From assembly GCA_934489945.1 (NCBI GenBank), contig CAKSSY010000001.1:12044-76043 (forward strand): 64,000 nt of DNA, given 5' to 3'. Positions 3,244 to 33,522 of the stretch are shown here, piece by piece; within the stretch, counting starts at the first letter, position 1; each line of letters opens with the position of its first letter. The notes beneath the pieces were generated by a model. It was given only the letters and a program-made list of their open reading frames with translations. It was not told where the DNA came from and made no database searches. This stretch comes from an uncultured Eubacteriales bacterium. Its GTDB lineage: Bacteria; Bacillota; Clostridia; Oscillospirales; CAG-272. The position numbers were made by a program, and so were the translations under genes.

Positions 3244-4131
3244 TTATTCGATATTCTGAATCTGTTCACGAATCTTTTCCAGTTCTGTTTTGGCATCGAC
3301 TACCAGATGTGCGATGTCCGAGTTGGAGCATTTGGAACCGATGGTATTGATTTCGCGGTTCATTTCCTGAACGAGGAAGTCGAGCTTTCGGCCTGCCGGT
3401 TCCCCGGATGACGCGATATCCTCAAACGCCTTGAAATGCGAGCGGAGTCGCACCAGCTCTTCGTCAATGGCGACCCGGTCGGCGAAAATGGCGCACTCGG
3501 TCAGAATACGGTTCTCGTCAACTGTAATTTTATTGTCGGCAAGAATTTGTTCAAGGCGTTCACGGAGTTTGTCGCGATACCCGTCAATGTCCTTTTCGGA
3601 AAGTGCGGCGATCTTGTCGGCAATTGTACGGATTGTCGCAATCTTGACGCTAAGGTCGGCTTCCATACGTGCACCTTCCGCCGCACGGGCGGACAGAAAT
3701 CCGTCGACGGCGGGGGAGAGAACCGAAAAAAGATCCTGCCAATCGGAAGCGGCATCCTCCTCGGGCTTACGGATGACAAAAATGTCGGAGTTGCGCGCCA
3801 CGCTCATCACGCTGATATCATCGGCAAGACCGAACTCATCACGCAGGTGGTGAAGGGCTTCCAAATATCCCTTGGTGTAAGCGATGTCGAGCGCAATATT
3901 TACGCCTTCGTTTTCCTGAACTTCGACGCTGATGCCGACATCAACTTTTCCGCGTGAAATTCCCTGTGACAGAAGGAACGGTTTGATTTTTTCCTCTAGA
4001 TAGGAGTAAGCACGCGGGAGTCGCACATTACAATCGAAAAAACGGTTATTGACGCTACGGATTTCGACGGTGATGTCTTTTCCGCCGACAGTTTTCTTTG
4101 CGCGACCGAAGGCGGTCATACTTTTCATCAT
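3244..4131 (-). CDS. yloC: YicC/YloC family (endoribonuclease-like) protein
   Basis: MKSMTAFGRA N-terminus and NREINTIGSK C-terminal motif. Start moved to the ATG 7 nt after GGAGGTG; the listed ORF extends to 4164. Confidence 0.85.
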   Translation of the reverse strand: MMKSMTAFGRAKKTVGGKDITVEIRSVNNRFFDCNVRLPRAYSYLEEKIKPFLLSQGISRGKVDVGISVEVQENEGVNIALDIAYTKGYLEALHHLRDEFGLADDISVMSVARNSDIFVIRKPEEDAASDWQDLFSVLSPAVDGFLSARAAEGARMEADLSVKIATIRTIADKIAALSEKDIDGYRDKLRERLEQILADNKITVDENRILTECAIFADRVAIDEELVRLRSHFKAFEDIASSGEPAGRKLDFLVQEMNREINTIGSKCSNSDIAHLVVDAKTELEKIREQIQNIE

Positions 4132-4924: not shown

Positions 4925-4969
4925 GGAAAATAACGGAGTCCGCACCCGATGCGGCAGAAAGGATCAGAA

Positions 4970-5461
4970 ATGAAACTTACAGAAAAAGCAGCGTATATCA
5001 AAGGATTGGCTGACGGTGTTGAATACGACAAAAACACCAAGGAAGGCAAGCTGATTGCCGCTTTGATTGATATGGTGGATGAAATGGCAAAGAAGATCGA
5101 CGTCCTTGACGAAACGATTGACGAGCTGAACGATTACATTGAGGAAATCGATGAGGATCTCGGCGATGTGGAGGAGTGCCTTTGCGACGGAGATTGTGAC
5201 GAATGTGACGACGAGGATTGTGACGGCGATTGCGAGAACTGCGACCATTCGGATGAATGTGACATTGCCGACGAAGACGAGGATGATGACGAGGAGGGTA
5301 ATGAGTATTTTGAAATCAAGTGTCCTTCTTGCGGTGAAGTAATCTGCTTTGACGAGAGCATTGATCCTGAGGACCTCATTTGTCCCGCGTGCCACGAGAA
5401 GATCGCGTGCATTGTCGACGAGGAAGATTATAAGAAGGTCAAAGAGGACGAAAAGAACTGA
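4970..5461 (+). CDS. Acidic Cys/Asp-rich protein with C-terminal zinc ribbon (CD1247 N-terminal-domain-like, name from memory)
   Basis: Start MKLTEKAAYIKGLADG lies after AAAGGA. Central CLCDGDCDECDDEDCDGDCENCDHSDECD. C-terminal CPSCG..CPACH ribbon. Confidence 0.6.
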   Translation: MKLTEKAAYIKGLADGVEYDKNTKEGKLIAALIDMVDEMAKKIDVLDETIDELNDYIEEIDEDLGDVEECLCDGDCDECDDEDCDGDCENCDHSDECDIADEDEDDDEEGNEYFEIKCPSCGEVICFDESIDPEDLICPACHEKIACIVDEEDYKKVKEDEKN

Positions 5462-5495
5462 CAGAGCCGTGAAAATACGGTTTGCGAACAGAAAA

Positions 5496-5697
5496 GGGGC
5501 TGTTAAAAAACTTGATGTTTTTAACAGCCCCTCAAAAATGCCGGTTGGGATTCCGGTATTTTGGATGCGATCTTGGTCGTTTTTGCCTCTGTGATTATGT
5601 TTTTTGATTTTTCCTGGTGGCAAAACGGCGGCTGAAAGCCACCGGGACCAAAGTCGTCGGGGTGTTAAAAAACTCATTTTGAGTTTTTTAACACCCC
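5496..5697 (+). repeat. Four-hairpin intergenic repeat element, copy 1 (full length)
   Basis: Four modules: H1 GGGGCTGTTAAAAA..TTTTTAACAGCCCC; H2 AAAATGCCGG..CCGGTATTTT; a spacer containing CACAGAGGCAAAAAC (read on the reverse strand), then H3 GGCTGAAAGCC; H4 GGGGTGTTAAAAAACTC..GAGTTTTTTAACACCCC. Matches 15083..15284 in inverted order. Sits between convergent genes. Confidence 0.8.
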
Positions 5698-5700
5698 TTT

Positions 5701-6675
5701 TCAGTGCAGTTGGGTTTCGTACAGAAGAAAACCGACAATCGCTGCCAACGTCGAGGCAAAGATAAGCGTCTTAGATGCCGGACGGGCACCGATACGATCG
5801 GCGAGCAGGTGATGGAAATGCGAGCGGTCCGGCAGAAGTGGGTTCTTTCCCGATGACAGGCGGCGCAGGACGGCGAAAACCAGGTCGGCAAGCGGAAGAG
5901 AAAAGACGAGCATAAGAATCAGCGGCGCACGAATTGCCCGAACGGCAAGAAAAGCCAGCATAAAACCGAGAAAGGTAGAGCCGGTATCTCCGAGAAAAAG
6001 CCGTGCCCCCCGCAAATTGTATGGAAGAAATCCGATACACGCGCCGCCTAGAATAAAACATATTGCGGCGTATCCGAGCGGAGGGGCAGAAAGCGAGATG
6101 AGACCGATAGCCAAACTTTCGACGAGAGAAACACCGGCACAAAGACCATCCAATCCATCAATAAAGTTGTGTGCGTTGATAAGCGTGACAAGAAAAAGAA
6201 CGGTAATCGGGGTTGAAAATGCGCCGAGCGACAGGTCTTTTCCGCCGATACGAAGAATCTGAAGTACATTTCCCCCCAGTGTCGACACAAACGCCGCCGC
6301 ACACTGGACACCGAACTTCAGTCCCGGAGGAAGGGAGAGCTCATCGTCCAACACGCCGACAAGCACAATCAAAACCGCACCCGCCAAAGCATAAAACAAA
6401 TCGGGCGCAATTTCATAGCCGTATAAGAGAGTCAAAATAAGGAACGCAAAATAGACCGACAGTCCTCCCAACCGCGGTACAGGATGCTTGTGCATCCGCC
6501 GTCCGTCACGCGGGATGTCGATGGCACCCAATCGAGCTGCCACGCGAAAGTCGAACGGTGTCAGCAGGAGCGAGAGGAGTGCCGAGAAGATCATGGCACG
6601 AAAAAGCCAAAGAATCTGCAAATCGTTCCGCCTTTCCGCGTGCCATTTTGTCAGATCACAAAACCGATCCTGCAT
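5701..6675 (-). CDS. Glycosyltransferase family 4 (MraY/WecA/TagO-like undecaprenyl-phosphate sugar-phosphate transferase)
   Basis: RRMHKHPVPRLGGL, VLDDELSLPP, NAHNFIDGLDGL and LGDTGSTFLGF motifs, with multiple TM segments. Start is uncertain: M at 6675 or 6594. The listed ORF to 6738 includes trpS-derived sequence. Confidence 0.8.
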   Translation of the reverse strand: MQDRFCDLTKWHAERRNDLQILWLFRAMIFSALLSLLLTPFDFRVAARLGAIDIPRDGRRMHKHPVPRLGGLSVYFAFLILTLLYGYEIAPDLFYALAGAVLIVLVGVLDDELSLPPGLKFGVQCAAAFVSTLGGNVLQILRIGGKDLSLGAFSTPITVLFLVTLINAHNFIDGLDGLCAGVSLVESLAIGLISLSAPPLGYAAICFILGGACIGFLPYNLRGARLFLGDTGSTFLGFMLAFLAVRAIRAPLILMLVFSLPLADLVFAVLRRLSSGKNPLLPDRSHFHHLLADRIGARPASKTLIFASTLAAIVGFLLYETQLH

Positions 6676-7030
6676 TTGATTTTGGAGAGCATTTTCCTTA
6701 TACAGTACAATAGAGATTCCCTCGGCAACCCTTTTCATGATACCATCAAGATAAGTCTTGTCGGTGAGAATCCGACGAATTCTTTCGTTTGCCGGCGTCA
6801 GCGCATCGGTACAGAACTGACCGACAGCCGACTTGAAGTCGTCATAGCCATTCCCGTCAAATTCTTCTTCGATTTTTCAAAATTCTTGCCTGTAAAGCAG
6901 AAACGGATTGACATGAGGTTGTCGATTTCGTTCCCGTCATCCGCATAGCGGGCGACGATAACGGAATCGGGCACGGCACGCTTGCTTTTCCTTATGATTG
7001 TGTCCCTGTCATTCGGAATATATACCACTG
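6640..7030 (-). pseudogene. Decayed C-terminal fragment of tryptophanyl-tRNA synthetase (trpS relic)
   Basis: Three reading frames together read YIPNDRDTIIRKSKRAVPDS..EIDNLMSI..TGKNFEK / IEEEFDGNGYDDFKSAVGQFCTDALTPANERIRRILTDKTYLDGIMKRVAEG. This is collinear with the last ~130 aa of bacterial TrpRS. There is a frameshift in the homopolymer at 6873-6877 and no KMSKS motif or N-terminal catalytic domain. Confidence 0.6.
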
Positions 7031-14227: not shown

Positions 14228-15073
14228 ATGAATATTACGGATGTTTTGATTCCCGTTGGAATCTTTGCGGCTTTGGGGTTGCTTTTCGGCGTCATACTGG
14301 CGGTTGCTTCCAAAATTTTTGAAGTCAAGGTGGATGAACGTGTACCGAAGGTGCTGGACTGTTTGCCGGGCGCGAACTGCGGCGGATGCGGCTTTTCGGG
14401 CTGTGCGGCACTTGCCGAGGCGATTGTAAAGGGGGAAGCCAAGCCCAATGCCTGCACAGTCGGCGGCAATGACGCGGCAAAGAAGATCGGGGCTATTATG
14501 GGAGTCGAGGTCGGAGAAAGCGTGCGGATGCGTGCACAGGTTATGTGTTCCGGCACTTCGGAATTTGCCAAAAAGAAATATATCTATGCCGGGGCGAAAG
14601 ACTGTATCTCTGCCACCAAGTTGGCGGGAGGAGATAAACTGTGTCCGAACGGTTGTGTAGGACTCGGAACTTGTGTTGCCGCTTGTCCGTTCGGTGCGAT
14701 TGAGGTTGTGAACGGAGTTGCCGTGGTCGATTATAAAAAGTGCGAGGGATGCGGTGTCTGTACGCATGCCTGTCCGAAGGGAATCATCAAGCTGATTCCG
14801 TACAACAGCCGCCATTGGGTGGGGTGTATGTCAGTGGAAAAGGGTGCGGTGACACGCAAACAGTGCGATGTTGGTTGCATCAGTTGCAAGATGTGCGAAA
14901 AGGCGTGTGAGTACGGTGCTATCAAGGTGACGGATTTTGTTGCCGCCATGGATTATGCCAAGTGTGTCGGCTGTGACAAGTGCGTGGAGAAATGCCCGCG
15001 CCATATTATCTGGTCTGCGGGGGCGCAGGACGGACACATGGTGATTACGCGCGAAAAGCTGATTCAAAAATAA
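14228..15073 (+). CDS. rnfB: Rnf complex subunit B (polyferredoxin)
   Basis: MNITDVLIPVG TM anchor, CGGCGFSGC motif and several CxxCxxCxxxCP clusters. ATG at 14228 follows GAGGAGG; the listed ORF is over-extended. Confidence 0.9.
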   Translation: MNITDVLIPVGIFAALGLLFGVILAVASKIFEVKVDERVPKVLDCLPGANCGGCGFSGCAALAEAIVKGEAKPNACTVGGNDAAKKIGAIMGVEVGESVRMRAQVMCSGTSEFAKKKYIYAGAKDCISATKLAGGDKLCPNGCVGLGTCVAACPFGAIEVVNGVAVVDYKKCEGCGVCTHACPKGIIKLIPYNSRHWVGCMSVEKGAVTRKQCDVGCISCKMCEKACEYGAIKVTDFVAAMDYAKCVGCDKCVEKCPRHIIWSAGAQDGHMVITREKLIQK

Positions 15074-15082
15074 TGAAAAAAA

Positions 15083-15284
15083 GGGGTGTAAAAAAACTCA
15101 TTTTGAGTTTTTTTACACCCCCGACGATTTTGGTCTCGGCGGCTGAAAGCCGCCGTTTTGCCACCAAGAAATGCGAAAAGACAAAGTCACAGAGGCAAAA
15201 ACAACCAAGATCGCCTCCAAAATGCCGGACGGGATTCCGGCATTTTGGAGGAGCTGTTAAAAACATCGAGTTTTTAACAGCTCC
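15083..15284 (-). repeat. Four-hairpin intergenic repeat element, copy 2 (full length, inverted relative to copy 1)
   Basis: Module order H4-H3-spacer-H2-H1 on the + strand. The spacer CACAGAGGCAAAAACAACCAAGATCGCCTCC equals the reverse complement of the copy 1 spacer. About 85% identity by eye. Confidence 0.8.
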
Positions 15285-15397
15285 TTTTGGTTCTTATGGT
15301 TTGAAACGCTTGTACGGGAAGACATTTTGGCGAAGCCGTCAATTCACGGGCGCACTTTTACGGGAGGGGGTAAGTCTTCCCGTGATCGTCATACTCA

Positions 15398-16495
15398 CTA
15401 TAAGAGAAGCGGCGAAAGCTCATAAAAGGTTCTTTGAAAATCGGGCAGGTGGCGGTTGGCGGCAATGGCATAAAAACCGCTGTGTTCGACAAAACGGTAC
15501 GCCTCAGCCATCAAGTCGACAAGATCATCAAGAGAATGGCTTTCCATCATGCCGAAAACACAAATGAATCGCAGAAGTGCCACCGAAAAGAGAAGGGAAG
15601 AAAATGCGACGGCTGGAGAACCGGCATCGGCTATGTAAGGAAACCCTTCAAAAATCATGTGATTGACGATGAGTTTTTCGGCGTAATCCTCAATATGAGG
15701 AAAGGCGTTGCAGAGATGCTGTTTTGCAATCTTGAATTTTTCGTATGCTTCGTCGTCCCCGCAATCGCCGAGAAGTGTCAATGCCTTTCCACCGCAGTCA
15801 CCGATACTGCGGCTTTTTTGACGGATTGTCAGAATAAAAGCACGTATTGCATGAATGGCAGAGGCTCCTGTGCAGTCATGAACGTTGTCGGCAACGGGCG
15901 AATTTTCCGGATCGCCGATAAAGTCACATAGATTTTCCAACCGTTTGCAGAGCGGCAGTGCCCGATTTTCCATCAATCGAATGGCTTCTTTACGTACAAG
16001 ATCCTTGGTATCGTTCGCATCATAGATCTTGATGCCGTCAAACGGAAGCCTGATATTGACGGGTTGCATTCTGAGCGGTTCGGTGGTTTCAATCAGCAAT
16101 TCGATGGTTCTCTCACAACTGTTTGACATACAGATCTCGGTTTTGTCACCGTAACGTTTGACCGAGCGCGGGTAGACGCGGCAGATAAGCGGAAGAGCTT
16201 CTTCCCCCTGTTCCTTTTGCAACAGGCAATAGCCATCCGTGTCAAGCATGGGACAATTGCCGTTATAATCCGGATTGATACGCGCAAAATGTTCCGGTTC
16301 GCCAAGCGGAAGAATTTCAAAGGCACAATCAAGACGGTGCCGCAAGGTATTTCCGCATTCGATGCCGAGAAGTGTATAGTATTCTTTTTCGGAAAGTGTG
16401 ACACCCCAACCGTTGCAACAAACGCGGCGGCATTTATCGCATTTGCAGGCAAATTTTCCAATGTAGTCGGGAGCGGTTACAGAATTTGTATTCGT
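15398..16495 (-). CDS. FliB/YkgJ-family Cys-rich protein (flagellin lysine-N-methylase-like); N-terminus lacks a canonical start
   Basis: The canonical-start ORF is 15398..16345 (TTG). The in-frame upstream 50 codons encode the family signature APDYIGKFACKCDKCRRVCCNGWGVTLSEKEYYTL. GGAGG sits 8 nt before an ACG codon at 16495. Confidence 0.6.
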   Translation of the reverse strand, partial: TNTNSVTAPDYIGKFACKCDKCRRVCCNGWGVTLSEKEYYTLLGIECGNTLRHRLDCAFEILPLGEPEHFARINPDYNGNCPMLDTDGYCLLQKEQGEEALPLICRVYPRSVKRYGDKTEICMSNSCERTIELLIETTEPLRMQPVNIRLPFDGIKIYDANDTKDLVRKEAIRLMENRALPLCKRLENLCDFIGDPENSPVADNVHDCTGASAIHAIRAFILTIRQKSRSIGDCGGKALTLLGDCGDDEAYEKFKIAKQHLCNAFPHIEDYAEKLIVNHMIFEGFPYIADAGSPAVAFSSLLFSVALLRFICVFGMMESHSLDDLVDLMAEAYRFVEHSGFYAIAANRHLPDFQRTFYELSPLLL

Positions 16496-20833: not shown

Positions 20834-20918
20834 GTGAAATCTTTCACATTGTCATTTTACTCTGAAAATCGGGACTGCAACAGTCCTTTGAAAAATGAGG
20901 AGTCGGGTGGAAGAACGG

Positions 20919-21080
20919 TTATCTTTCCTGCTGGTTCCGACGATTCTGTTCGTTCTGCTGATTCTGCTGATTCTGCTGATTCTGTTGGTTCTGTTCGTTC
21001 TGCTGGTTCTGCTTGTTCTGGCAGTTCTGAGAATTCTGTTGATTACGGATTGTATCGTTATTTTGATTCTGATAATTCAT
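20919..21080 (-). CDS. Putative 53-aa Gln/Asn-rich small protein
   Basis: MNYQNQNNDTIRNQQNSQNCQNKQNQQNEQNQQNQQNQQNQQNEQNRRNQQER. AAAGGAG lies 8 nt upstream of the ATG. Bracketed by terminators. The other frames over the repeat are also open, so coding status is tentative. Confidence 0.45.
   Translation of the reverse strand: MNYQNQNNDTIRNQQNSQNCQNKQNQQNEQNQQNQQNQQNQQNEQNRRNQQER
20942..21041. repeat. Imperfect tandem 9-nt repeat (about 11 units, NNNRTTCTG on the + strand)
   Basis: ctgattctg x3, ttggttctg, ttcgttctg, ctggttctg, cttgttctg, gcagttctg, agaattctg. Encodes (Q-N-x)n on the reverse strand. Confidence 0.8.
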
Positions 21081-21167
21081 TTGAAAAACTCCTTTCGGTT
21101 TTGTAAGAATAGTTTGTTCGAGTTCGGCGGAACTATTCCGGAAATCGGAAGAAGAAATATTTTTCAT

Positions 21168-21198
21168 AAAAAAATCCGAAAGCATTGCTTTCGGATTT
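21168..21198 (-). terminator. Terminator of the tRNA-Thr/Tyr operon
   Basis: On the reverse strand, AAAATCCGAAAGCaatgCTTTCGGATTTTTTT immediately follows the tRNA-Tyr CCA end. Confidence 0.6.
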
Positions 21199-21283
21199 TG
21201 GTGGGGGATGGTGGATTCGGACCACCGAAGTCAGAGACAACAGATTTACAGTCTGCCCCCTTTGGCCGCTCGGGAAATCCCCC
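21199..21283 (-). tRNA. tRNA-Tyr (GUA)
   Basis: Reverse complement GGGGGATTTCCCGAGCGGCCAAAGGGGGCAGACTGTAAATCTGTTGTCTCTGACTTCGGTGGTCCGAATCCACCATCCCCCACCA. Long variable arm and GTA anticodon. Confidence 0.9.
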
Positions 21284-21317
21284 TTATGGAGTCTACAGCG
21301 ATTGCCATAAACCCTTT

Positions 21318-21392
21318 TGGAGCTGGTGATCGGAGTCGAACCAACAACCTGCTGATTACAAATCAGCTGCTCTGCCATTGAGCCACACCAGC
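21318..21392 (-). tRNA. tRNA-Thr (UGU)
   Basis: Reverse complement GCTGGTGTGGCTCAATGGCAGAGCAGCTGATTTGTAATCAGCAGGTTGTTGGTTCGACTCCGATCACCAGCTCCA. Anticodon loop TTTGTAA. Confidence 0.9.
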
Positions 21393-25915: not shown

Positions 25916-25962
25916 AAAAAAATAGAATGGAAAATACCTTCGGCGAAAGGATGACAAATAAA

Positions 25963-27042
25963 ATGGAAAACAAATTCAGAAAAATCGGTGTATTGACATC
26001 CGGAGGCGATGCCCCCGGAATGAATCCCTGTATTCGCGCCATTACCCGCAAGGGAATTGAACAGGGCGTGGAAGTCGTGGGAGTTTTGGGAGGCTATAAA
26101 GGGCTTGTTGACGGTTCTCTTATGCCGTTGAACCCCAGAAGTGTTTCCAATATTATCACCCGCGGCGGAACTATGCTGTATTCCGATCGTTGCCCGGAGT
26201 TCAAGACAGAGGAAGGAATGAAGGCAGCAATTGAAACCTGTCGCAAGAATAATATTGATGCCATTGTTGCCATCGGCGGCGACGGTACGTTCCGTGGTGC
26301 CACCGACCTTACCCGCCATGGAATTCCGACGATTGGTATTCCCGGTACGATTGACAATGACATTACCGCGACCGACTACACGGTTGGTTACGATACGGCA
26401 ATGAATACGGTTTTGTCTTTGATTGACGATCTGCGCGACACTTGTGAATCTCACGGCAGATGCAACGTCGTAGAGGTTATGGGACGCGATTGCGGTTGTA
26501 TTGCCTTGAATTCGGGAATTGCCGCGGGAGCGGTCGCCATTGCCATTCCCGAGCTTCCTTTTGACGAGGAAGAAGCCATTGAAAAGATCAAAAGCGTGAA
26601 AGCCGCCGGAAAACGCGGTATGATCGTAGTTCTCAGCGAGGGCGTTTCCTTTGCCAAAGGCGAGAATTACGGCGAGAGATTGACTGCGCGGATTGATGCG
26701 GAAACGGGGGTTCAATCTCGTTTTGCCCGTTTTGCTCATATTGTTCGCGGTGGTTCTCCGTCTCTTCGTGACCGTCTTACGGCAACTGAGATGGGCGTTC
26801 TTGCCGTTGAGCTTTTGCTGAAGGGCGTGAGCAATGTGGTTATCTGCGAAATCGATGGCGAGATCAAGCCTGTGGAAATCAACTATGCGCTGATTCTTGA
26901 CCGTATGTACAAAGGCAAACTGAAGGACGGCGATTTGGATCTCTTTACTGCTTCGCAGATCGAGGAGATGCGGTTGACTTGTCAGCGTCGCTCTTTCAAT
27001 ATCAAACGTTTGTATAATCTTTCACGTGACATTTGCAAATAA
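25963..27042 (+). CDS. pfkA: ATP-dependent 6-phosphofructokinase
   Basis: IGVLTSGGDAPGMN, IGGDGTFRGA, PGTIDNDI and VMGRDCG motifs. Start chosen at MENKFRKIGVL. Confidence 0.9.
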   Translation: MENKFRKIGVLTSGGDAPGMNPCIRAITRKGIEQGVEVVGVLGGYKGLVDGSLMPLNPRSVSNIITRGGTMLYSDRCPEFKTEEGMKAAIETCRKNNIDAIVAIGGDGTFRGATDLTRHGIPTIGIPGTIDNDITATDYTVGYDTAMNTVLSLIDDLRDTCESHGRCNVVEVMGRDCGCIALNSGIAAGAVAIAIPELPFDEEEAIEKIKSVKAAGKRGMIVVLSEGVSFAKGENYGERLTARIDAETGVQSRFARFAHIVRGGSPSLRDRLTATEMGVLAVELLLKGVSNVVICEIDGEIKPVEINYALILDRMYKGKLKDGDLDLFTASQIEEMRLTCQRRSFNIKRLYNLSRDICK

Positions 27043-27058
27043 TTAAGGCACTTTTATG

Positions 27059-27096
27059 AGGGGCAGTAAAAAACATTACGTTTTTTACTGCCCCTC
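27059..27096 (+). terminator. pfkA terminator, H1/H4-type stereotyped hairpin
   Basis: GAGGGGCAGTAAAAAAcattacgTTTTTTACTGCCCCTC. Confidence 0.6.
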
Positions 27097-27200
27097 ATAA
27101 ATTACAAACGGGAGACGTTGATTTGGGGCAGAATTCCTCTGTTTTTGCCATTGAAAACAGGCGTTTTTCTTTTTGAAAGGGTAAAAACAGAAAACGAAAA

Positions 27201-27234
27201 GAGGGTGTAAAAAGTTTTGTTCTTTTACATCCTC
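27201..27234 (-). terminator. Terminator of the serine-hydrolase gene, H1/H4-type hairpin
   Basis: GAGGGTGTAAAAAG..CTTTTACATCCTC, followed by a T-rich tract on the reverse strand. Confidence 0.55.
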
Positions 27235-27273
27235 TTTTCGTTTCTATAGTCGTCGATTCCGGGAACGAACTCG

Positions 27274-28767
27274 TCAAACGCGTCTTGCCACAAATGTTCC
27301 CGTATACTCGTTTAAGAACGCCTCGGCAGCCTTGGTCATGCAGACCGCAACCTCATCGCCACGGAAGGCAAACACGGCGGTACTGTTTCCAAAATATCGA
27401 TCGATAATCTGGATACGCAAAATCAACTTTTTTTCCTCGCGCCACGCTGCGGAAACCGCACAGTTGTAGCGGAATCCGGGGGCACCCGGCATCGTGCCGA
27501 TTTCGTCGGAATATCCGTCCTGCGGGAACTTCCCGAACACATTGTGGTTCATGCCGAACGGAAGAACTTTGTCGCCCTGCTCATTGGTATAACGAAATTC
27601 TCCGGTGCCGTCGCCGTGGAACACAAACGAAAAATGAGTGATTTTTTGCGGATTCGGCTTGTCACAGACGTATTCTGCACCGTTCAATTCTGCCTCAAAC
27701 GGTGACACAGCCTCTCCCGTGATTGAACGGAGTTTGAGATTGGCACGGAAGGAATCTAGACTTGCCTTGGCTTTGGAATCTTCCGCCAAGGGATGTTCCG
27801 AAAGTTCATTCACAATTCCATCAAACAAACTGTCAATGAGAATTGCCCGTGCGGCAGCCCGTGCGGCAGGTGCGCCCTGATTGTCTGCCGTACAGGTGAA
27901 GATAAAGTCCTTGTCCGGCACGCATATGGTGAGTTGGTCGCCCATGCCGATAAAGCCAAAGCTGTTCTGCTCCAAACGCCATATCTGATACCCGTAGCCA
28001 TAAGAAAGTGCGCCGCCGTGACCATCGGTGTCATTATCGACAACACGCGAGGTGGCGGTTCGTAAATATGCCTCGTTCATCAAACGTTTGCCGTTCCACG
28101 TTCCGTAGTTCATCACGAAACGCGCAAAAGACAACATATCCCGTGGCGTACAGACCATAGCGGAGTCGCCCCACGACTCACCGGTCGGTGTTTTCAGCAT
28201 GGTTGCCGTTTGAAAGGAGCCGATCTCGTTGAAAATTTTCTTTTTCAGATAATCCAACAACGGCATCCCCGACAGACGCTCTGCAAGAACGCAGAGAACC
28301 TGGGAACCGGGGCTGTCGTACTGCCAAAGCGTTCCTGCGGGATGTGTGGTTCGGCGATGATTGAAATAAATATGACAACGGTCATGGTCGGTGTGAAGGA
28401 ACCAGTTTTCCGAATCACCGCAGGTCGTCATGGTCAACATTTGACGGATTGTTTGCTCGGCGAGATAGGGCGGAAGCTCACCGTCAATCTTGTCGGCAAA
28501 ATACGAAGCAATCTTATCGTCAAGCGACAACTTGCCATCTTCCTCAAGAAGTCCGATGGCAACGCCGACAAAGCTCTTGGTCTGTGAATACATTCTGTGA
28601 CAGAACTCCGCTGTAAAAGGAGCCCAGTAGTTCTCCGAAAATATTTTATTTCCACGCATCATCAGCACGCTGTGCAACGTGATTCCGTGACGTTCATAAA
28701 GGGCAAGCAGTTTTTCCACCTGTCGGCTCGAGATACCTGCTGCCTCAGGGGTAATTGTTTCAAACAT
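27274..28767 (-). CDS. Serine hydrolase, beta-lactamase/transpeptidase-like (class C related)
   Basis: SxxK motif YSQTKSFVG near the N-terminus. 497 aa with an extra C-terminal domain. No signal peptide. Confidence 0.8.
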   Translation of the reverse strand: MFETITPEAAGISSRQVEKLLALYERHGITLHSVLMMRGNKIFSENYWAPFTAEFCHRMYSQTKSFVGVAIGLLEEDGKLSLDDKIASYFADKIDGELPPYLAEQTIRQMLTMTTCGDSENWFLHTDHDRCHIYFNHRRTTHPAGTLWQYDSPGSQVLCVLAERLSGMPLLDYLKKKIFNEIGSFQTATMLKTPTGESWGDSAMVCTPRDMLSFARFVMNYGTWNGKRLMNEAYLRTATSRVVDNDTDGHGGALSYGYGYQIWRLEQNSFGFIGMGDQLTICVPDKDFIFTCTADNQGAPAARAAARAILIDSLFDGIVNELSEHPLAEDSKAKASLDSFRANLKLRSITGEAVSPFEAELNGAEYVCDKPNPQKITHFSFVFHGDGTGEFRYTNEQGDKVLPFGMNHNVFGKFPQDGYSDEIGTMPGAPGFRYNCAVSAAWREEKKLILRIQIIDRYFGNSTAVFAFRGDEVAVCMTKAAEAFLNEYTGTFVARRV

Positions 28768-33419: not shown

Positions 33420-33453
33420 AAGCCGTAAAGGGGAAAAACAATATAATCACGTC

Positions 33454-33522
33454 AGAATGCCCGGAATCCCAACCGGCATTTTGGAGGGGCTGTTAAAAAC
33501 TCAATGTTTTTAACAGCCCCTC
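33454..33522 (-). repeat. Partial copy (H2+H1 end only) of the four-hairpin repeat
   Basis: AGAATGCCCGGAATCCCAACCGGCATTTTGGAGGGGCTGTTAAAAACTCAATGTTTTTAACAGCCCCTC. Lies between the GH2 stop and the convergent ttcA-like stop. Confidence 0.75.

Follow-up and report, generated by a model that had tools for sequence, protein, structure and literature searches.

What is the palindrome-rich, non-coding sequence of ~205 nt that fills the gap between two convergent genes at positions 5496-5697 of a 64,000-nt stretch of contig CAKSSY010000001.1 (the window), from an uncultured Eubacteriales bacterium, and that returns as its own reverse complement at positions 15083-15284? Our analysis indicates that it is probably a non-autonomous, interspersed repeat of ~205 bp, akin to the miniature inverted-repeat transposable elements (MITEs) and of the SPRITE/BOX/bcr1 kind, which has multiplied in this gut Clostridia lineage. 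The family is previously undescribed; the kind of small bacterial repeat is familiar. We read it as a repeat rather than as a set of conserved genes because it is multicopy at unrelated loci, because near-identical copies have unrelated flanks and the expansion is lineage-specific, and because it combines presence/absence, a series of decay states, co-varying inverted ends, a lack of coding capacity and placement only downstream of genes.

From its 5' end the element comprises two hairpins (H1 and H2), a three-way junction (stems P1, P2 and P3) and a last hairpin (H4) followed by a T-run. Copies A (5496-5697) and B (15083-15284) are mutual reverse complements with 174 of 211 aligned positions identical (82.5%), close to the ~85% that the initial annotation of this DNA had estimated by eye, and a large share of the mismatches consists of hairpin loops (H2, P3 and H4) that are reverse-complemented between the copies. 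BLAST pieces against other family members are 83-87% identical. No plausible open reading frame (ORF) lies inside the element, in agreement with the earlier statement that it does not code for protein. From the copies we constructed a profile and two covariance models; searches with them over the available DNA of this genome, i.e., the 64-kb window and about 15 kb beyond it, gave five copies (A-E) within about 74 kb:

5496..5697, plus strand: copy A, intact, H1-H2-three-way junction-H4 (242 bits), between a 170-aa zinc-ribbon-like gene (4949-5461, plus strand) and a glycosyltransferase-4 gene (5701-6738, minus strand)
15083..15284, minus strand: copy B, intact, orientation opposite to A (241.8 bits), with H4 at 15083-15121, the junction at 15124-15214, H2 at 15219-15246 and H1 at 15249-15285, between rnfB (14228-15073, plus strand) and a FliB-like gene (15398-16345, minus strand)
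27058..27239, plus strand: copy D, degenerate (99.4 bits), with H1 and H4 intact, a remnant of H2 with a GGGAG loop and an eroded core, between pfk (25927-27042, plus strand) and a beta-lactamase-family gene (27274-28767, minus strand)
33420..33522, minus strand: copy C, truncated and decayed (model positions 2-104; 55.8 bits), with H1 at 33486-33520, H2 at 33455-33482 and remnants of the P2/P3 region that abut the lacZ stop codon
L212:17666-17851, outside the window, ~3.9 kb from its right end: copy E, degenerate, with a peptidase M14 gene on one side and a xanthine/uracil permease gene on the other

All five sit between convergent gene ends, as had been noticed for the copies recognized at first. 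Copy C had been taken for a half copy (33454..33522) made of H2 and H1 only; homology reaches 33420, hence it is a truncated, decayed copy. The five copies form a series of preservation, from A and B (intact) through D and E (eroded) to C (truncated), and in D and E the terminal hairpins are kept with compensatory changes while the core has eroded. The other strong hairpins of the window have sequences unrelated to the element, which is therefore not simply the usual terminator look of this genome.

Evidence for mobility comes from the comparison of occupied and empty sites. Homologues of the 170-aa gene beside copy A were traced to their contigs, and in a sister species with ~92% nucleotide identity (L231) the same two convergent genes are separated by a 75-nt spacer in which site A is empty. 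This spacer holds one hairpin, AGGGCTGTTGCCGACACA-GAA-TGTGTTCGGCAACAGCCC, bounded by AAAA and TTT and located exactly at the place of the element. Homology between the window and L231 runs 9 nt into the 5' arm of H1 and resumes 8 nt before the end of the 3' arm of H4; the element thus lies inside, or replaces the inner part of, a resident bidirectional terminator with the same outer stem as the element ends. Alignment of the filled and empty sites showed no target-site duplication. In farther syntenic relatives (75-77% nucleotide identity) the spacers are 53-54 nt long with a simple, unrelated hairpin, so that absence at site A is ancestral by parsimony. Site D, in turn, is occupied by a further internally deleted copy on a contig of ~92% identity from the same metagenome sample, taken as the same sister organism. 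With D occupied and A empty in the sister, D is old and A recent, in agreement with their states of preservation, and the insertions are of different ages. The presence/absence check proposed in the initial annotation thus revealed copy variation among close relatives. Two other derivations of the site, in which H1 and H4 are a duplicated local target hairpin or the empty-site hairpin is a simple H1xH4 deletion product, were rejected on the same two observations: the H1/H4 sequence is common to copies at different loci, and the inner stem of the empty-site hairpin differs.

Within the species (contigs 97-100% identical) the sites seen are always occupied: A in three contigs, B in five and C in one further contig, while a sixth contig at site B covers merely the first bases of H4. 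Four within-species contigs stop inside H1, H4 or the junction core, as could happen if short-read assemblies or de Bruijn graphs break at the repeat or at its palindromes. Two groups of strains can be told apart at site B, where 23 of the 211 positions of the element differ between them, with a similar rate in the adjoining 113-nt spacer and ~0.35% divergence in 6.3 kb of flanking genes. In the comparison of window positions 15077-15400 with L208 and L210, this intergenic region is ~10% diverged, which could reflect hypermutable hairpins, short-tract import by recombination, or relaxed selection. The H2 loop at site B is inverted between strains (CCGGAATCCCGTCCGG versus CCGAACGGGATTCCGG; window 15225-15240 versus L208:~3990-4010), and from copy to copy the loops of H1, P3 and H4 are flipped as well. 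Since the H2 loop is inverted between strains at the same locus, hairpin-loop inversion is ongoing. Gene conversion from copy A was considered as a source of the strain differences at site B and rejected, as the sites show no preferred direction (10 match one variant and 8 the other).

Copies A and B fold with -98 and -114 kcal/mol (z = -9.3 and -13.7 against shuffled sequence). The four hairpin modules and the conserved spacer (CACAGAGGCAAAAACNACCAAGATCGC) described in the initial annotation are all present in both; H3, though, is not a free hairpin but arm P3 of the three-way junction. In copy A the parts are as follows:

5495..5532, plus strand: H1, a 16-17-bp hairpin, GGGGCTGTTAAAAAAC / GTTTTTAACAGCCCC, with AAAA before it
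5535..5562, plus strand: H2, a hairpin, AAAATGCCGG / CCGGTATTTT, with loop UUGGGAUU containing a GGGA motif
5567..5657, plus strand: core, the three-way junction of P1 (5567-5578/5646-5657), P2 (5581-5600/5607-5625) and P3 (5626-5633/5637-5644)
5659..5697, plus strand: H4, an 18-bp hairpin followed by TTTT, the T-run overlapping the stop codon of the minus-strand gene

The junction stems are GCGATCTTGGTC/GACCAAAGTCGTC (P1), TTTTGCC.../GGCAAAA (P2) and GGCGGC/GCCACC (P3). Covariation was tested on a model-guided alignment of 10 copies, itself fitted to the model, in which 94.7% of the cells are paired as compared to 43-50% with slid partners, and both sides have changed in 52 of 77 pairs; none of 500 shuffles attained the observed values. 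Compensatory changes are present in all six helices, and the same six were recovered de novo from six copies by MAFFT and RNAalifold, as an independent check. H1, H2 and H4 are near-pure Watson-Crick palindromes, equal on both strands. The junction behaves otherwise: P1 and P2 together contain 26 G.U and three A.C pairs, and the core folds better in the forward than in the reverse direction by 3-6 kcal/mol in eight of nine copies. The pattern GUUUUUGCC...GGCAAAAC-GGCGGC...GCCGCC-GAG is kept from the window to the distant copies in L031 and L020/L190 and is weakened in L074, and GGGA in the H2 loop is retained in most of the aligned copies. These features point to some forward-strand constraint, acting on RNA or on single-stranded DNA. 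The Rfam check suggested in the initial annotation gave no family: with Rfam 15, only tRNAs reached the gathering score in the window, and in permissive scans of copy A and seven copy-bearing loci the element obtained chance-level matches only. Two hits close to threshold were seen elsewhere on copy-bearing contigs, i.e., a T-box leader at L113:6599-6832, adjoining the copy of that contig (91.6 bits, gathering score 93), and a Gut-1 RNA at L074:11072-11148 (48.8 versus 50 bits).

The two ends of the element resemble terminal inverted repeats. In copy A, the 5' arm of H1 equals the reverse complement of H4's 3' arm at 15 of 16 positions (GGGG[C]TGTTAAAAAAC), and the copy in L074 shows the same degree of match (15/16; GGGG[C]TGTTTCATTTG), while A and L074 agree with each other at just 10-11 of these positions. 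The ends are hence more alike within each of these two copies than between them, and co-evolve in the manner of terminal inverted repeats. Other close copies match at 11-15 end positions in arms of up to 18 nt, and the copy in L154 is weak (8/18). A consistent target-site duplication, for which the initial annotation had advised a check, was not found in the 10 copies when left and right flanks were compared against shuffles; a significant direct repeat flanks just one of them, the tRNA-linked copy in L031.

A consensus scan of A and B is in line with the earlier proposal that the terminal hairpins also act as terminators, but the predicted geometry is crossed, with H4 serving the element's own strand and H1 the opposite one. 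Most copies retain the A-run that precedes H1 and the T-run that follows H4. H1 and H4 are therefore candidate intrinsic terminators, at which transcripts arriving from either side would end only after crossing the element. We found no conserved promoter upstream of or inside it. The minus strand of copy A carries a sigma-70-like sequence in the P2 arm (TTGCCA-18 nt-CATAAT, window 5594-5623) that points leftwards; it is not conserved in B or the other copies and is probably fortuitous.

Related copies occupy unrelated loci in other gut and rumen Clostridia contigs. A metagenome-contig scan with the P2-P3 pattern listed at least 120 loci, at least five of which are true (L113, L154, L159, L168 and L190), the others stemming from an unrelated conserved gene of a common human-gut organism or being chance hits; among the matches listed are at least four complete copies, and one more contig carries several partial ones. 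The elements in L159 and L168 are 98% identical with entirely unrelated flanks, and both are 87% identical to copy A. Those in L154 and L113 share 77-82% identity with A and show many compensatory changes. In the rnf loci of related species (80 loci, 1.1 Mb) a copy was present in only three, L074, L031 and L020, of which L074 and L031 are contigs of metagenome-assembled genomes (MAGs) of related Clostridia species. These three are strongly diverged in sequence with unchanged architecture, and in the closest relatives rnfB is followed by a plain terminator. Across the clade the family occurs widely but sparsely, with a local expansion in the species of the window. The reading as a repeat element made in the initial annotation is borne out by these further copies, in this genome and in others, which refute a simple local duplication.

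The copies are placed only downstream of genes. Copies A to E and those in L159, L074 and probably L168 lie between convergent genes; tandem genes surround the copies in L154 (co-oriented with the upstream gene) and L113 (anti-oriented, with the promoter and T-box leader of the next gene following), and none of the copies found is in a divergent promoter region. In L168 and L031 the element stands after a separate, pre-existing terminator, as would be expected of a selfish insertion at a safe location. The copies in L031, L020 and L190 are located just downstream of tRNA-Met and tRNA-Glu genes, and here a copy of the T-loop/3' end of tRNA-Glu, TTCGAT(C)TCCCGTACGGGT, is repeated after the element (L031:5634-5900, L020:2887-3165 and L190:6200-6593; none of 300 shuffles was as good). 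In L190 two units stand in tandem (period 193 nt), and both are closed by the tRNA-Glu 3'-end repeat. No such flanking repeat occurs at the window copies. The arrangement in this subfamily hints at the attL/attR of (repeated) site-specific integration at a tRNA gene. Solo hairpins were also seen at gene ends in L190, one of the H4 type (148-186, 97% identical to the window H4) and one of the H1 type (1362-1393), in a species otherwise without nucleotide similarity to the window. The terminal hairpin thus exists alone, and perhaps it also spreads alone. Directly upstream of the L074 element, at L074:1040-1085, a short unit, GCGCTTC[A]GCGC...AGTGATAT, occurs twice in tandem. The pattern GTTTTTGCC-N36-GGCAAAACGGCGG was also found in highly conserved sequence of a common human-gut organism (L093, L094, L097, L111 and about 30 other metagenome loci), which is unrelated to the element.

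Beyond these contigs the searches were negative. An exact scan with the conserved spacer of 185,579 representative genomes, a set that does not include the species of the window, gave zero matches; two scans of IMG/VR gave chance matches only, and BLAST against phage and plasmid collections gave none. The terminal hairpin type was not found in the 1.1 Mb of related species or in IMG/VR. Literature searches gave nothing specific on a Clostridia repeat of such type.

The host DNA is core chromosome, with priA, gmk, remA, efp, the rnfCDGEAB operon, pfk, lacZ, ligA, ssb, rpsF and ABC transporters, and there are zero copies in the last 28 kb of the window. Identical proteins are present in human-gut assemblies, Hadza samples among them, and the nearest species representatives are Clostridia/Eubacteriales/Oscillospiraceae MAGs with an RnfC identity of at most 81%. 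A separate repeat is located at window positions 20928-21077, where about 15 units of a 9-nt repeat (CTGCTGATT and variants) form a tandem array between a DUF1893 gene and tRNA-Tyr/tRNA-Thr, in a doubtful ORF (20895-21329) that overlaps the tRNA genes.

How a mobile repeat of this kind might work can be outlined from the comparisons above. New copies would land in, or replace, a bidirectional terminator hairpin that is already present downstream of genes, in most cases of two convergent ones, where an insertion would be harmless. An outer stem that is the same in element and resident hairpin suggests that the element homes into similar terminators, be it through recombination, through template switching between similar hairpins or through some enzyme. 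Once inserted, the element would serve as terminator, H4 and its T-run for its own strand and H1 and its T-run for the other. Each convergent mRNA would then cross the whole element and receive a complementary, highly structured 3' untranslated region (UTR) of ~200 nt, and the structured 3' end may stabilize the RNA. With time the copies decay by erosion of the core, the terminal hairpins lasting longest. A bolder version, which we think improbable, is a self-targeting terminator cassette that homes into terminator hairpins sharing its outer stem (GGGCTGTT/AACAGCCC) and carries a functional three-way-junction RNA into both convergent 3' UTRs. Homing could then proceed by hairpin-driven template switching or recombination without a dedicated transposase, or by a trans-acting recombinase that reads the structured RNA or DNA, and the junction RNA might bind a protein, or the sense/antisense overlap of ~200 bp might couple the decay of both convergent mRNAs. 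A bridge RNA like that of IS110 was looked for by eye and rejected, as the variable P2 loop shows no complementarity to the ends or the target.

Several observations weigh against a mobile repeat. Among the 38 window ORFs scanned against Pfam, none matched a transposase, an integrase or the RAYT/Y1-transposase family, which agrees with the earlier statement that no transposase is nearby; a parent insertion sequence (IS) was likewise not found among these ORFs. The lack of a target-site duplication points the same way. All sites seen within the species are occupied, so there is no sign of current activity, and the lone empty site could in principle be a loss and not a gain. Finally, the strand asymmetry of P1 and P2, the forward-stable core and the conserved P2 and P3 suggest selection on forward-strand RNA, which selfish DNA would not need.

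This last point is the root of a different explanation, which we consider unlikely, in which the copies are paralogous genes for functional RNAs, or for RNAs derived from 3' UTRs, with a functional (e.g., protein-binding or regulatory) junction and H2 GGGA loop and with H4 as the terminator. Besides the strong covariation in P1, P2 and P3, the 26:3 ratio of G.U to A.C pairs, the forward-stable fold of the core and the motifs conserved to distant copies, it is supported by covariance-model scores that are much higher in the forward than in the reverse direction (e.g., 170.7 versus 42.3 bits for L113), by H4 being predicted to terminate the forward strand only, and by the three species in which the element stands just 3' of tRNA-Met/tRNA-Glu, where co-transcription is possible. 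An RNA gene would, however, sit poorly with copy similarity that begins exactly at H1, with no conserved promoter before or within it; the sole sigma-70-like match, in A, lies on the reverse strand and is not conserved in B, and the forward strand in L113 has neither an upstream gene nor an evident promoter. In C, D and E it is the core that has decayed and the terminal hairpins that survive, the H2 loop is flipped in the window's B and not in other strains at that site, so that its sequence is dispensable there, and no Rfam family matches.

The palindromes themselves could instead be what matters, if the element were a host-domesticated DNA structuring element of the type of the repetitive extragenic palindromes (REPs) and BIMEs, binding a nucleoid protein or gyrase or extruding cruciforms and so managing supercoiling and transcriptional collisions. 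BIMEs of E. coli have the same kind of location and bind gyrase and IHF, all five copies of this genome lie between convergent genes, and H1, H2 and H4 are near-perfect on both strands with loops that invert freely between copies and even strains, as if only stems or duplex mattered. We nevertheless give this explanation little credence, since the copies are few, uneven (absent from the last 28 kb of the window and nearly so from related species) and subject to decay, since the ~10% divergence of the B intergenic region against ~0.35% in its flanks argues against strong purifying selection, and since pairing in the three-way junction is asymmetric between strands; we also know of no binding protein. 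An explanation that does without a repeat family, in which A and B are terminators of the ordinary kind with no relation to each other or stem from a single local duplication, is already refuted. H1 and H4 do look like intrinsic terminators and A and B are 9.4 kb apart, but 200 nt at >80% identity cannot be chance, the flanks of the copies are unrelated, copies exist on other contigs including MAGs of other species, and the other strong hairpins of the window share no sequence with them. A mobile repeat that lands in terminators is probably the best account of the whole.

If this account holds, an ordinary terminator has been replaced by a 200-nt structured block, and, if the crossed geometry is real, convergent mRNAs overlap across the whole element. 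The filled/empty pair at site A is a clean natural experiment on repeat entry into terminators without target-site duplication. Since its helices covary strongly, the element could be mistaken for a small RNA or riboswitch candidate in covariation screens; should the junction prove to be a functional RNA, it would exemplify how a mobile element can spread a regulatory RNA module. Small structured repeats have so far been catalogued mostly in cultured pathogens, and the present family belongs to an uncultured lineage of gut Clostridia for which all knowledge stems from metagenome assemblies. It is worth cataloguing, and not surprising.

Among known systems, the REP/BIME/REPIN sequences of Proteobacteria are extragenic palindromes at gene 3' ends, often convergent, that occur in either orientation and in mosaics and affect termination and mRNA stability. 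They are units of 20-40 bp with a GTAG-type head, exist in hundreds of copies and are associated with RAYT, an IS200/IS605-like TnpA. The present unit is a fixed composite of 205 nt whose arms start with GGGG(C)TGTT, with no GTAG head and no RAYT seen in the window, and the membership in the REPs considered in the initial annotation is therefore not upheld. Autonomous elements that encode their recombinase also use palindromic targets: IS1397 and ISKpn1 insert into REP loops, and members of the IS110/IS1111 family into REP-like or repeat targets. The element resembles them in lying inside a resident palindromic hairpin without target-site duplication, and differs in that no recombinase gene was found among the window ORFs scanned.

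Bacterial MITEs, such as the Correia elements of Neisseria, are short, multicopy, intergenic sequences without ORFs that have terminal inverted repeats, show presence/absence and can affect transcript processing or termination; they normally have a target-site duplication and a parent IS recognizable by shared terminal repeats (Delihas 2011, PMC3184786). Our element is like a MITE in size (<~500 bp), lack of an ORF, copy number, terminal inverted repeats and presence/absence at site A. Membership in the strict sense is not supported, as no target-site duplication was detected and no parent IS was found among the window ORFs scanned; each terminal repeat is also folded into a hairpin of its own. 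The bcr1 repeat of the Bacillus cereus group is a non-autonomous, transcribed sequence of ~155 bp with non-conserved distribution between related strains; compensatory changes preserve its multi-helix RNA structure, some copies are less stable, and 5-bp direct repeats flank it (Delihas 2011, PMC3184786). In the present family, known here from sequence alone, compensatory changes keep the fold in the same way; sequence and fold are different, and direct repeats are lacking.

Also among the closest parallels are repeats of the Firmicute Streptococcus pneumoniae, where SPRITE, BOX and RUP are non-coding interspersed repeats of <200 bp to a few hundred bp that form stable stem-loops when transcribed, transpose slowly, and thin out with distance, from abundance in one species to fewer copies in its closest relative and near absence beyond (Croucher et al. 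2011, PMC3049150). BOX is built from modules, not all of which need be present, and BOX and RUP have target-site duplications (PMC3049150), which the present element does not. SPRITE consists of a duplex of ~18 bp between AAAA and TTTT, like an oversized Rho-independent terminator, with no demonstrable target-site duplication (PMC3049150), and is a close parallel to H1 and H4. The host here is a member of the Clostridia and not a streptococcus, and no sequence similarity to SPRITE or BOX was seen, their hidden Markov models not having been run. In architecture, the present element amounts to two SPRITE-like hairpins joined with a conserved three-way junction in one fixed unit of ~205 nt.

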